A stretch of DNA of 64,000 bases, taken from Eledone cirrhosa. Its lineage: Eukaryota. Position numbers and translations under genes: made by a program. The stretch covers positions 24,986,001-25,050,000 of the forward strand of contig OZ024749.1 in NCBI GenBank assembly GCA_964016885.1. The letters are read 5' to 3'. The notes beneath the pieces are model-generated. The model ran no database searches. It was not told the origin of the DNA and saw only the letters and a program-made list of their open reading frames with translations. Of this stretch, positions 1 through 11,314 are shown piece by piece. How positions within the stretch are numbered: position 1 is the first letter of the stretch; each line of letters opens with the position of its first letter.

Positions 1-333
1 TACACACACACACACACACACACACACATATATATATATATATATATATATATATGTGTGTGTGTGTGTGTATGTATGTGTGCGTATGTATGCATACATG
101 TGTGTGTATGTGTGTATATGTAAGTATGTATGTATGTGTATATGTCTATATGTGTGTATGTATATATATATATATATATATATATATATATATATATATA
201 TATAAATATATATATGTATGTATATGTATATATATATATATATATATATATATGTATATATGTGTGTATATATATGTATATATGTATATATATATGTATA
301 TATATATATATATATATATATAGAAAAAAGAAT

Positions 334-589
334 AAGAGATGAAATCGAAAATGCAACTGAAGTCTTATTTTTTTTTAAATATATATATTTATTTGGTTCC
401 TTTACCGGTTTCGCAGTTCTTCTGCTTTTCAAAAGGTGAGTTGAGATCGAGGGTCTGTGGTTTTTCTCACATCCATCTCAACTCACCTTTTGAAAAGCAG
501 AAGAACTGCAAAACCGGTAAAGGAACCAAATAAATATATATATTTAAAAAAAAAATAAAACTTCAGTTGCATTTTCGATTTCATCTCTT
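334..589. mobile_element. Non-coding fold-back cassette (family A) in a (TA)n tract; ~114-bp inverted arms, each carrying an HHR
   Basis: 334-447 is the reverse complement of 475-589, with a ~27-nt spacer. Second copy at ~7586-7842; 3' fragment at ~19381-19517. Confidence 0.85.
399..436 (-). ncRNA. Minimal type I hammerhead ribozyme, U3-A8 core variant (family A)
   Basis: Minus strand: CCUU-UUGAAAA-GCAG aagaa CUGC-GAAAC CG GUA^AAGG. Stem I CCUU/AAGG, palindromic stem III ACCGGU. The plus-arm copy at 486-523 has G12A; copies at 7652-7689(-) and 7739-7776(+) are intact. Confidence 0.75.
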
Positions 590-1299
590 TTTATTTATAC
601 TTTCACTCGTGTAGGACACCTCGGTTATTTTTCATTTTGTAAAAAAAACCTAAGTTTCTAATATATATATATATATATATATTATATAAATAGATATATG
701 TATGTATATGTATATATATATATATATATATATATATATATATATATATATATATGTATATATGTGTGTGTGTATGTATATATGTGTGTGCGTGTGTGTG
801 TATATATATATTTGTATATATATATATGTATATATATATATATATGTATGTGTATATATATGTATATATGTGTATGTATATATAAATATATATATATATA
901 TATATATATATATATATATATATATATATATACATGTATATATGTGTGTATATCTATATATGTATGTATATATATATATATATATATATATATATATATA
1001 TATATATATATATATGTATATTTACATATATATGTGTGTACGTGTGTGTGGGTGTATATGTATATATATACATGTGTGTATATATATGTATGTGTGTGTA
1101 TATATGTATATATATGTATTTATATGTATATATATATATATATATATATGTGTATATATGTATGTGTGTATGTATGTCTATATATATATATATATATATA
1201 TATATATATATATGTATGTATATATATATATATATATATGTATATGTATGCATATATTTATATATGTGTGTGTGTATATATATATGTGTATATGTGTAT

Positions 1300-1840
1300 G
1301 TGGGTGTGTCTATGAGTTCGCGCTAGTGTGTGAGTGAGTGCATTTTTTGAATGTGTCTGTTGATTTGGCATACAGTTGAATAGTTTAAGAGAAATTTGAG
1401 GACAATTGTAAGATATGCACTCAATATTTTGAATTTGTCTACAGAATTCTCTAAACCTTTGTCACTTAGTAAAGAATTTAGCTTTTAAAGAATCTCCCTT
1501 TCCCTTAAATCTATCACCATGCCTGACCCCCACTGATTTTATAGACCCTGTTAGCTTAAGAGAAACTTAATAATAAGGATTGGCATGCCATCCTGAACCT
1601 GTTTATAGAATTCTTCTTGCCTTTGTTACTCTAAAAATAAAAATAAACTATAGCTTTGTAGAATTAGCTTTTAAAGAATTCTATCAACCAATGACCTACA
1701 CCCCTACCACTCTCCACCCTCTCCTACCACTCGTAGAGACCTATATACACCATACTTATTTTTTTGATACCCAGATTCCTGATGATTTCTAAAGAATGAA
1801 ACAGTTCTAGTCCTGTAGAATCTCTTCTACATAAAAACTA
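1300..1840 (+). mobile_element. Non-coding PLE-type cassette (family B) ending in an HHR and a (TA)n tail
   Basis: Copies at ~8885-9420 and a diverged copy at ~43330-43860. Inverted partial copies at ~2103-2265 and ~9674-9836. Confidence 0.75.
1773..1823 (+). ncRNA. Type I hammerhead ribozyme (family B)
   Basis: AGAUUC-CUGAUGA-uUUC uaaa GAAu-GAAACAG uucuaguc CUGUA^GAAUCU. Stem I AGAUUC/GAAUCU, stem III ACAG/CUGU, GUA site. Also at 9354-9404(+). Confidence 0.8.
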
Positions 1841-2119
1841 TATATATATACATATATATACATATATATATATACACACATATATATATATATATATACA
1901 TATATATATACATATATGTATATATATATATATGTGTGTATATATATATGTATATATATATATATATATATATATACATATATATAGATGTATATATATA
2001 TATGTATATATATATGTCTGTATATATATATGTGTGTATATATATATATGTATATATATATGAATATATATATGTGTGTATCTATATATATGTATATATA
2101 TATAGTTTTAATATAGAAG

Positions 2120-7286: not shown

Positions 7287-7488
7287 CGTCGTGTGGACGC
7301 GTTCTTGAGACTAGTAAAATGAGGTATCCTCTTGATAAGTTGGCAGACCTCGCAAGGACTCTATATCTTTGATATATTGTTTTTGTTTATGCCACGAAAC
7401 TACGTAGTCGAGGAATTTAGGAGCAGTTTAGGTATGATACATTTTATTACTAATTATATCTAAATGTTTCTTCTCTCTTCATAATGTA
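7287..7488 (+). mobile_element. Inverted partial family D unit capping the array; HHR at 7327-7414(+)
   Basis: Reverse complement of the unit segment tacattatg...ccacacgacg, joined through a CG microhomology at 7287-7288. Confidence 0.9.
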
Positions 7489-8334
7489 TATATATATATA
7501 TGTATATATGTGTGTATATATATGTATATATGTATATATATATGTATATATATATATATATATATATATATATAGAAAAAAGAATAAGAGATGAAATCGA
7601 AAATGCAACTGAAGTCTTATTTTTTTTTTAAATATATATATTTATTTGGTTCCTTTACCGGTTTCGCAGTTCTTCTGCTTTTCAAAAGGTGACTTGAGAT
7701 GGAGGGTCTGTGGTTTTTCTCACATCCATCTCAACTCACCTTTTGAAAAGCAGAAGAACTGCGAAACCGGTAAAGGAACCAAATAAATATATATATTTAA
7801 AAAAAAAATAAGACTTCAGTTGCATTTTCGATTTCATCTCTTTTTATTTATACTTTCACTCGTGTAGGACACCTCGGTTATTTTTCATTTTGTAAAAAAA
7901 CCCTCAGTTTCTAATATATATATATATATATATATTATATAAAGAGATATATGTATGTATATGTATATATATATATATATATATATATATATATATATGT
8001 ATATATATATATATATATATATATATATATATATATACATGTATATATGTGTGTATATCTGTATATGTATGTATATATATATATATATATATATATATAT
8101 ATATATATATATATATGTATATTTACATATATATGTGTGTATGTGTGTGTGGGTGTATATGTATGTATATACATGTGTGTATATATATGTATGTGTGTGT
8201 ATATATGTATATATATGTATTTATATGTATATATATATATATATGTGTGTATGTGTATATATGTATGTGTGTATGTATGTCTATATATAAATATATATAT
8301 ATATATATATATATATATATATATATATATATAT

Positions 8335-8819
8335 ACATTATGAAGAGAGAAGAAACATTTATATATAATTAGTAATAAAATGTATCATACCTAAACTGTT
8401 CCTAAATTCCTCGACTACGTAGTTTCGTGGCATAAACAAAAACAATATATCAAAGATATAGAGTCCTTGCGAGGTCTGCCGACTTATCAAGAGGATACCT
8501 CATTTTACTAGTCTCAAGAACGCGTCTACACGACGTGAGAAAGAATCCCAAAAGGCGGAGGGGGAGATAGTCACGCGATATAACGGTCGAGAAACAGAGC
8601 TAAGCCTCTTATAACCACGAAGAAAATACCACGGAGGCGGAGGGGGTATTCATATCGAGGCCGTAGAAGAGGTAGTGAAGAAGGCGAGAAGTATGAGTAA
8701 TGGAAGCTTTCCAGTTGTCCCCACACTTCAAAGATTGCTCGACCAGAGGGAGTTATTAATATATTTAAAAACACACAGATACATGCGGACACACACATAT
8801 ATACATGAATGCATCCGCA
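8335..8819 (-). mobile_element. Solo partial family D unit with HHR at 8408-8495(-)
   Basis: Matches the 591-bp unit; absent from the paralogous TA tract at ~1180-1245. Confidence 0.9.
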
Positions 8820-11314
8820 ATGTATTTGTATGCATATATTTATATATGTGTGTGTGTATATATATATGTGTATATGTGTATGTGGGTGTGTTTATGAGTT
8901 CGCGCTAGTGTGTGAGTGAGTGCATTTTTTGAATGTGTCTGTTGATTTGGCATACAGTTGAATAGTTTAAGAGGAATTTGAGGACAATTGTAAGATATGC
9001 ACTCAATATTTTGAATTTGTCTACAGAATTCTCTAAACCTTTGTCACTTAGTAAAGAATTTAGCTTTTAAAGAATCTCCCTTTCCCTTAAATCTATCACC
9101 ATGCCTGACCCCCACTGATTTTATAGACCCTGTTAGCTTAAGAGAAACTTAATAATAAGGATTGGCATGCCATCCTGAACCTGTTTATAGAATTCTTCTT
9201 GCCTTTGTTACTCTAAAAATAAAAATAAACTATAGCCTTGTAGAATTAGCTTTTAATGAATTCTATCAACCAATGACCTACACCCCTACCACTCTCCACC
9301 CTCTCCTACCACTCGTAGAGACCTATATACACCATACTTATTTTTTGATACCCAGATTCCTGATGATTTCTAAAGAATGAAACAGTTCTAGTCCTGTAGA
9401 ATCTCTTCTATATAAAAACTATATATATATACATATATATACATATATATATATATACACACACATATATATATATACATATATATATACATATATGTAT
9501 ATATATATGTGTGTATATATATATGTAAATATATATATATATATATACATATATATAGATGTATATATATATATGTATATATATATGTCTATATATATAT
9601 ATGTGTGTATATATATATATGTATATATATATGAATATATATATGTGTGTATCTATATATATGTATATATATATAGTTTTAATATAGAAGAGATTCTACA
9701 GGACTAGAACTGTTTCATTCTTTAGAAATCATCAGGAATCTGGGTATCAAAAAATAAGTATGGTATATATAGGTCTCTACAAGTGGTAGGAGAGGGTGGG
9801 GAGTGGTAGGGGTGAAGGTCATTGGTTGATAGAATTTTTATTTTTATATATATATACATATATATACATATATATATACATATATATATACATATATATA
9901 TATATATACATATATATATATATATATACATATATATATATATATATATACACATATATATACATATATATTCATATGTATACATATATATATACATATA
10001 TATATATACATATATATATACATATATATATATACATATATATACATATATATATACATATATATACATATATATATATATATACATATATATATATACA
10101 CATATATATATATACATATATATATACATATATATACATATATATATATATATATATATATACATATATATACATATATATATATATATATATATATATA
10201 TATATATATATATATATATATATATATATATATATATATATATATATATATACATACGTATATATATATATACACATATATACATGTATATATATATATA
10301 TATATATATATATATATATGAGAGACATAAAATAAGAAAATTATAAAATTAACTTACTTACTAAAATTTCACTCCCAACTAATTAGTTTCTGAAATGGAA
10401 TAAATATACTTTCCGAAGAAAATATAGAGAATTCGTCGTCAGGTTCAGAAACTAATTAGTTGGGAGTGAAATTTTAGTAAGTAAGTTAATTTTATAATAT
10501 TCTTATTTTACGTCTCTTATATTATTGTTCGACAACCCCATGCATTGAACGACAAAGTTACTAAGACAAAACCTATATATTTGCTAGCATTGATATGCAT
10601 CTGTATGTATATATATGTTACTAGATATTAATACTATATAATTATCTCCAAATTATTTGTCGAGCAATATTGGCCAAGACTGCTACAATGGTAGCAGGAA
10701 GGCCGCTGTCTTATTAACAAACCACTTTCCACTGATTGACCTCGATGTCACGTGATTGATTCTTTTTGAATTTGCCACCGACGCAGAGGCAGAGATTTTC
10801 TCAATGGCTAGGAATTCAGTCTGCGCTTTGCTATTTTCTATCCACTGAATTATTTTTGAATAAGTTTCCAGAGTCCACGCTTTGCCTGGATAATTAGCTG
10901 AGAATAGTCTTCCCAGACGACGAAATGATTCTCAATATTTTCTTCGGAAAGTATATTAATTCCATTTCAGAAACTAATTAGTTGGGAGTGAAATTTTAGT
11001 AAGTAAGTTAATTTTATAATTTTCTTATTTTACGTCTCTCATATTATTGTTCTGCAACCCCATGCATTGAACCACAAAGTTACTAAGACAAAACCTATAT
11101 ATTTGCTAGCATGATATGCATCTGTATGTATATACATGTTACTAGATATTAATTCTTTATATATATATATATATATATATATATATATATATATATATAT
11201 ATATATATATATATATATATATATATATATATATATATATACATATATACATATATATATACACATAAATATATATATATATACATATATATACATATAT
11301 ATATACATATATAG

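Follow-up and report, generated by a model that had tools for sequence, protein, structure and literature searches.

The 64,000-nt stretch of the Eledone cirrhosa genome analysed here (assembly GCA_964016885.1, contig OZ024749.1, positions 24,986,001 to 25,050,000 of the forward strand; hereafter the window) contains a unit of ~4.0 kb present tandemly twice, and only the second copy carries sequences of a dispersed repeat that we call family D. The unit of this repeat is 591 bp long and forms arrays at more than 40 loci. Its two insertions in block copy 2, termed E1 (4261-7489) and D2 (8333-8819), have corresponding empty sites in copy 1, and when both are excised, copy 2 is colinear with copy 1 in the alignment. 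In window coordinates, the locus comprises the following features:

1..3536, block copy 1 as contained in the window (its start lies ~475 bp upstream), without any family D sequence
3537..11317, block copy 2, enlarged by two D insertions
241..242, empty site for E1 in copy 1, within (TA)n, the exact base being ambiguous
1237..1238, empty site for D2 in copy 1, at the end of a (TA)n run, ahead of ATGTATATGTATGC
4261..7288, minus strand, long arm of E1, running from unit position 1-3 beside (TA)n through 5 units of 591 bp plus positions 1-73
7287..7489, plus strand, short inverted arm of E1, the reverse complement of unit positions 370 to 168, with 0 mismatches to the unit in 203 bases
8333..8819, minus strand, D2, one-armed and from a second D subfamily, unit positions 168 to 591 followed by 1 to 63

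When 1-3990 was compared with 3991-11400 using BLAST, three alignments were obtained: 31-259 with 4041-4268 (95.6%), 232-1017 with 7481-8268 (90.4%) and 1238-3746 with 8820-11317 (97.3% over 2519 columns). The start of the unit was placed at about -475, since -475..60 aligns with 3537..4038 (96.9% over 491 aligned columns), so that copy 1 spans about -475 to 3536 and copy 2 spans 3537-11317. Aligned over four segments free of microsatellite, the copies show 22 differences in 1881 bases (1.17%) and 6 gap events. No third copy of the block was found in the 20 kb upstream or in the rest of the window, save one copy of a neighbouring repeat, family B, at 43322-43858 (88%). A compound microsatellite of ~450 bp is part of the duplicated unit, and its first ~160 bp occur again after copy 2 (11158-11317). 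The window contains zero N bases, in a source assembly of 3.0 Gb. Along the DNA, the order is microsatellite, block, microsatellite, block, short microsatellite and unique DNA, a layout expected from unequal exchange between similar flanking microsatellites, and similar microsatellites on either side probably mediated the block duplication. In the assembled sequence the observation itself is confirmed, and the duplication is probably real.

At the E1 site, copy 2 has 15 bp more (TA)n than copy 1. The two E1 arms overlap by 2 nt at the turn, and the outer end of the short arm (unit position 168) abuts (TA)n. D2 likewise starts at position 168 beside (TA)n, its position-63 end lying against ATGTATTTGTATGC, and the two D hits are 850 bp apart. 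An initial annotation of this DNA had described a ~4-kb block present twice, an array lying within a TA run that is unbroken in copy 1 and a second D piece at a site empty in copy 1. BLAST alignment of both halves bears out the first of these, and the alignments place the array (4261-7489) between 241 and 242 and the second piece (8333-8819) between 1237 and 1238; the coordinates and description given there hold as well, although its inverted tail at 7287-7489 had been overlooked. In contigs of the sequencing runs X1, X5, X9 and X10, none bridges the E1 turn junction between 7288 and 7289, the contigs continuing into the normal unit; as these are low-coverage contigs, an unbridged turn carries no information on other individuals.

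A search of the genome with the D unit gave 607 first-look candidates, 40 of which were scored and yielded 173 matches at 98-100% identity, while a search with the D2 sequence gave 236 further first-look candidates, scored copies of both subfamilies being 98-100% identical. The anatomy of the family was counted by us in the window and in 40 fetched loci, which together hold 43 elements (one locus, L076, counted as two). Arms range in length from 0.05 to ~6 head-to-tail units and their inner ends are scattered anywhere in the unit, and every arm, read inward from its outer end, runs in one and the same sense. Outer ends fall at unit position 1-3 or 167-168, with further starts at 163 and 172, and the sole exceptional end, at position 45 in L096, has no adjoining (TA)n. 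Two arms in opposite orientation are present in 28 of the 43 elements, and 27 of these 28 pair a '3' arm with an inverted '168' arm; the remaining one pairs 45 with 168, and like-with-like pairs are absent (0 of 28). E1, which combines positions 1 to 73 with inverted 168 to 370, is built as a typical two-armed D element. The other 15 elements are one-armed, nine starting at 167-168 and six at 1-3. We found (TA)n at the canonical end in all 14 one-armed elements inspected and in all 13 of another set, variable ends often abutting other sequence, and loose ends of (TA)n directly before position 1-3 were also seen in contigs of runs X1, X5 and X10. The one-armed element of locus L101 (2512-3429) has (TA)n plus TTATTTAAGGCCAGTTT on both flanks, so that its target site is duplicated over at least 39 bp, 17 of these bases being unique. 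A hot spot for the turn near positions 361-370 was considered and dropped, as the 28 two-armed elements did not bear it out. At L076 (2204-6743), two D elements, one diverged and one-armed, the other young and two-armed, stand back to back with their canonical ends facing, a neighbourhood like that of E1 and D2.

The two outer ends correspond to two copies of a 21-nt motif, both of which are found in the array:

4419..4439, plus strand, start motif copy B, GAGTTAAAAATACATTATGAA, present in every unit; '168'-type arms begin inside it (position 168-171)
4845..4865, plus strand, start motif copy A, GAGTTATTAATATATTTAGAA, spanning the unit boundary; '3'-type arms begin at the equivalent base

The copies are identical at 16 of 21 bases, and both starts line up exactly on GAGTTAWWAATAYATTWWGAA, the start points dividing the motifs between GAGTTATTA and ATATATTTAGAA in one case and between GAGTTAAAA and ATACATTATGAA in the other. 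As for coding capacity, open reading frames (ORFs) that overlap the array do not exceed 76 aa, apart from two longer listed ORFs that touch only its left edge. For the minus-sense unit (4428-5018), the folding energy is -167.8 kcal/mol, compared with a mean of -141.4 for shuffles (z -4.4), and the structure is branched rather than rod-like; this fold covers the minus sense only and was therefore kept out of the evidence.

Six diagnostic sites are uniform across all units and both arms within every element, and elements differ from one another, with haplotypes GGCATC, GGCATT, AGTATT and AGTGTT, and GGCACC in E1. A C at position 362 (C362) is carried by all six E1 units that cover this position, the inverted arm included, and by no other fetched element, and the fetched genome matches one mismatch away from the E1 unit all have T there. 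In the sequencing runs, position 362 is 100% T in X5, X9 and X10 and 99.25% T in X1, with a depth share of C362 of at most 0.75% in X1 and 0% in the three others. Over all elements, 8 element-private alleles occur in all units, 47 in a single unit and 3 at intermediate frequency. We infer that each element was copied from one homogeneous template, which may have been a single unit copied repeatedly or a uniform source array outside the assembly. The direct arm may have grown in situ after insertion; the presence of C362 in both E1 arms indicates that this allele arrived with the template. Given the arrays of the same build at 40 other loci, with 0.4-6 units per arm, and C362 in all six E1 units that cover the site, the earlier suggestion that the array came as a pre-formed multimer is very probable.

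In its 3231 bp, E1 carries one 529T and three private single-unit changes (two of them adjacent). Between D2 and the E1 unit there are 6 differences in 487 sites (1.2%), and five of the six D2-specific alleles are subfamily alleles common to many other genomic copies, T197 being the only one private to D2. The nearest genomic matches to D2 are one and two mismatches away. At the six diagnostic sites D2 reads ATTGTT, the haplotype AGTGTT being found in L086, L088, L097, L098 and L104, and contigs of other sequencing runs agree mostly with D2. Given these few private changes against a block divergence of 1.17%, both insertions appear to be younger than the duplication, which supports the proposal, made in the initial annotation, that the D pieces were inserted into existing (TA)n after it. 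Since E1 and D2 belong to different subfamilies, they represent two separate hits, and the accompanying idea of local hopping or one complex event is not supported, in view of the six sites at which they differ, the D2 alleles at five of these being shared with many other copies. The closeness of the two elements is better explained by (TA)n targeting, as the block is rich in (TA)n. A fold-back or inversion joining E1 and D2, whose position-168 ends face each other, was rejected because position 168 is a family-wide terminus and the subfamilies differ, and an origin of D2 before the duplication was rejected on the same two grounds.

The array had been labelled an HHR (hammerhead ribozyme) array, a label that our searches do not support. 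Rfam at the gathering score gave no match in the 64-kb window, and at E<=10 the region 4200-8900 gave no ribozyme family but only microsatellite-driven microRNA look-alikes; in addition, the C[U/C]GANGA core is absent from both strands of a D unit dimer. The missing catalytic core, in the Rfam search as in the core scan, led us to reject a hammerhead or retrozyme identity of D, although one retrozyme-like trait is present, namely dispersed head-to-tail arrays of a short non-coding unit. Other classes of element were also considered. Foldback transposons have long inverted arms of tandem repeats with identical outer termini and short fixed target duplications, whereas D has two unlike outer ends (positions 3 and 168), 15 elements are one-armed and one target duplication measures at least 39 bp, so that a foldback or terminal-inverted-repeat DNA transposon was rejected. 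Helitrons are marked by 5'-TC ... CTRR-3' ends and by insertion between A and T without a target duplication; the ends of D read ATATATTTAG... and ...CATAATGTAT and the L101 element has a target duplication, and this class was likewise discarded. A 47-nt D string, searched with a viral origin in mind, had no exact match in viral_contigs. The traits shown by D are those of Penelope-like element (PLE) insertions: a fixed 3' end with variable 5' truncation, a (TA)n target, partial tandems next to an inverted copy that is 5'-truncated, and an extension confined to one end.

Autonomous PLEs, encoding reverse transcriptase (RT) and GIY-YIG endonuclease, occur in the same genome as D. The genome holds 10,596 first-look GIY-YIG candidates, and all 150 that were scored lay above the Pfam cut-off. 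One such locus, with others at L055 and L053, is:

4809-7622 of locus L054, minus strand, PLE

A CGRSNCGTC string ahead of the GIY-YIG domain is of the CX4CxxC type, which Craig et al. (2021, PMC8557442) tentatively tie to (TA)n recognition. One autonomous family, PLE-1, has direct pseudo-LTRs (long terminal repeats) of ~1.1 kb together with inverted copies, and its 3' end takes two alternative forms, which lie 61 nt from each other and are both on (TA)n; as judged from these copies, PLE-1 shares the two-ended, (TA)n-bound architecture of D. In 100 kb from ten PLE loci, Rfam at the gathering score found nothing, hammerhead included.

Three further repeat families lie in the duplicated block, one of which is linked to PLE-1:

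323..660 and 7575-7913 (second copy), family A, a two-armed 338-bp fragment of the PLE-1 3' end, flanked by (TA)n
1294-1838 and 2100-2275, also 8876-9419, 9671-9846 and 43322-43858, family B, two opposed copies with the same end facing (TA)n
2743-3582 and 10320-11157, family C, built like D and bounded by (TA)n runs, with 1.37 tandem units of 522 bp and an inverted arm

Family A matches the 3' (pseudo-LTR) end of PLE-1 at 92-97% (loci L054, L055, L058, L061, L062 and L064), one of its arms being ~61 nt longer than the other, and this match to the 3' end of an autonomous PLE led us to reject family A as an independent hairpin repeat. Family C has 2284 candidates genome-wide at 94-97% identity; in elements read by hand, its 3' ends recur at unit positions 79 and 197, at least 10 two-armed elements combining one end of either kind, and a second class of 5 elements has position 50 on both arms. 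Family B contains, close to its (TA)n-facing end, a CUGAUGA...GAAAC string (~1780-1805), in which no Rfam hammerhead was detected even at E<=10. The block is thus a nest of (TA)n-bound repeats.

Sampled D 31-mers occur in sequencing runs labelled as 17 organisms, from 16 studies. In runs X4 and X6, the unit is present as a contig of 621 or 620 nt (591 + 30) with 1-3 differences from D2, a length expected of a cycle in a k=31 graph, although a tandem DNA array would give the same. The occurrence of D across 17 run labels could reflect shared ancestry, horizontal transfer or carry-over.

Taken as a whole, we consider it likely that E1 and D2 were inserted after the duplication through target-primed reverse transcription by a PLE enzyme, and, on its sequence, D is a new ribozyme-free non-autonomous element whose putative PLE-type insertion is of a known kind. 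In the mechanism that we propose, a D RNA of minus-strand sense, multimeric or circular, would be bound in trans by a PLE RT-endonuclease, which would nick a (TA)n tract on both strands. From each 3'-OH, cDNA synthesis would then begin at one or other internal start motif; both cDNAs would run the same way along the RNA, stop at arbitrary points and be joined, leaving a tandem arm and an inverted arm, while single priming would account for 5'-truncated elements with one arm, such as D2. D's counterpart of the PLE 'tail' would be the 165 nt that separate its two starts. More speculatively, the strict one-of-each pairing may mean that a dimeric enzyme sits on both motifs, or that the RNA's 3' terminus leaves one of each uncopied.

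The anatomy of D matches published accounts of PLEs. PLE insertions, as described by Craig et al. (2021, PMC8557442), are 5'-truncated and partly tandem, often have an inverted 5'-truncated neighbour and carry a tail of 30-40 bp at one end; the same source reports that Naiads prefer (TA)n and lack canonical HHRs, and that non-autonomous PLEs form multicopy head-to-tail insertions. A purified PLE protein cleaves and extends both strands at AT-rich DNA, and reverse transcription begins at two internal RNA sites with the tail between them, a multi-copy transcript being the probable template (Frangieh et al. 2024, PMC11167929).

Other observations weigh against this reading. No meaningful match to D was found by blastn or tblastx in 33 PLE loci (of more than 10,000 candidates), the only D matches there involving microsatellite-like unit positions 2-100 and the tblastx matches being of low complexity. 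The start motif has one occurrence in these PLE loci, at 3 mismatches, a result that a shuffle equals, and the 3' region of D does not align with the 3' end of PLE-1 (z=0.59, end-anchored and local). The gap of 165 nt between the D starts is far above the 30-40 bp of PLE tails, and start-site use in vitro showed no strand difference (Frangieh et al. 2024, PMC11167929), whereas pairing in D is strict. The alignment of D2 with its empty site contains no recognisable target duplication. Among the sequencing runs that contain D none is recorded as RNA, and the D transcript, its sense and its circular form are putative; the two block copies, in turn, are presumed paralogues.

The architecture of D can be set beside that of several known systems. 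In L1 twin priming, two target 3' ends prime on one RNA, and the product combines an inverted 5' part with a direct 3' part, meeting at an internal junction that is arbitrary; one priming site of L1 is the poly(A) tail and the other is internal and random, whereas D starts at two fixed motif sites and gives multimers. Animal non-LTR retrozymes, reportedly the subject of work by Cervera and de la Pena in 2020, have units shorter than the 591 bp of D. Like D, they form dispersed tandem arrays of short non-coding units, but by the definition in Li, Clavereau and Pollet (2026, 10.64898/2026.07.22.740005) each of their units contains a type I hammerhead ribozyme, which D does not have; the same preprint states that retrozymes co-occur with PLEs and proposes that they are PLE-dependent and copied by rolling circle. 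The non-autonomous PLEs MRC1 and other Chlamys elements are non-coding like D (Craig et al. 2021, PMC8557442), and they share 3' ends with a known autonomous family, while the 33 PLE loci yielded no such partner for D; D further differs from them in its animal genome, its (TA)n target and its two starts 165 nt apart. Naiad, Neptune and Penelope, in the same paper, resemble D in 5' truncation, partial tandems, an inverted 5'-truncated neighbour, an extension at one end and AT-rich or (TA)n targets. For the Anolis PLE PAc, cleavage and extension of both strands and two internal RT starts have been demonstrated (Frangieh et al. 2024, PMC11167929), which is what we propose for D. Unlike Naiad, Neptune, Penelope and PAc, D encodes nothing and its 'tail' is 165 nt rather than 30-40 bp, and its genomic copies use strictly one start per arm, which is not so for PAc in vitro.

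A bolder version of the PLE reading, which seems doubtful at present, would make D a ribozyme-free counterpart of retrozymes: one 591-nt RNA, circular or recopied from end to start, would undergo rolling-circle reverse transcription, and a dimeric PLE enzyme would use each copy of the 21-nt motif strictly once, one per nicked strand, the element spreading between species. This last part is suggested by the near-identical 591-bp units in runs labelled as 17 organisms. If true, the genomic copies of D would be an in vivo record of two-site, two-strand initiation, hitherto seen in vitro only.

Two alternatives concern the empty sites rather than the means of insertion. The 'duplication' could be an assembly artefact in which two haplotypes were placed in tandem, the empty sites then being the other allele and the D pieces heterozygous. 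We regard this as unlikely, even though the 1.17% difference between copies is within the heterozygosity range of many animals, the join falls in the microsatellite of ~450 bp (3583-4040), and the layout of microsatellites and blocks predicted by such a mis-join is identical to that of unequal crossing-over; both copies lie in one N-free stretch, which, by inference only, counts against a scaffolding join. That both D pieces predate the duplication and were precisely deleted from copy 1 is, in turn, extremely improbable: two independent deletions would each have had to restore an unbroken (TA)n, E1 has only three or four single-unit changes in 3231 bp, and although the 1.2% between D2 and the E1 unit comes close to the divergence of the block copies, five of the six D2 differences are subfamily alleles, which leaves one private change. 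Tandem and inverted repeats in microsatellites are, nonetheless, prone to deletion.

The remaining alternatives accept the insertions and assign them to another machinery. A non-PLE retrotransposon, such as a (TA)n-specific long interspersed nuclear element (LINE), might have moved D, with inverted arms arising by twin priming as in L1. Target-primed reverse transcription by a LINE would likewise fit 5'-truncated elements with fixed 3' ends and inverted arms, as well as the long target duplication, and the 33 PLE loci provided no partner for D; we nevertheless think LINE mobilization quite unlikely, given that the strict start pair (27 of 28) and the head-to-tail multimers are hallmarks of PLEs in Craig et al. 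(2021) and Frangieh et al. (2024) and that an autonomous PLE family in this genome has the same two-ended, (TA)n-bound build, the comparison having covered the PLEs of this genome. Spread as DNA, by rolling-circle extrachromosomal circles captured at fragile (TA)n breaks through microhomology, is very improbable. It would accommodate the variable unit number of the arrays, the few bases that the AT-rich starts share with (TA)n and the cyclic 591+30-nt contig of two runs (although a tandem array gives the same), but arms start at one base of a 21-nt motif and not at any AT-rich spot, the single inward sense of all arms needs a single-stranded template, and a target duplication of at least 39 bp indicates staggered nicks.

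If E1 and D2 were inserted in the PLE manner, as we favour, this locus offers a before-and-after view of insertion by a poorly understood class of retroelements, in which an unbroken (TA)n became a multi-unit array with an inverted tail. The strict pairing of start sites at a duplicated motif would provide genomic support for the two-site, both-strand initiation observed for one PLE protein in vitro, and the uniform variants within each element support copying from a single template; together, start pairing and uniform variants suggest testable rules for the origin of pseudo-LTRs, tails and inverted copies. Given that D is not a hammerhead array, ribozyme self-cleavage appears unnecessary for the spread of such tandem non-coding elements, and D-like elements account for part of the interrupted (TA)n landscape in this 3-Gb genome.

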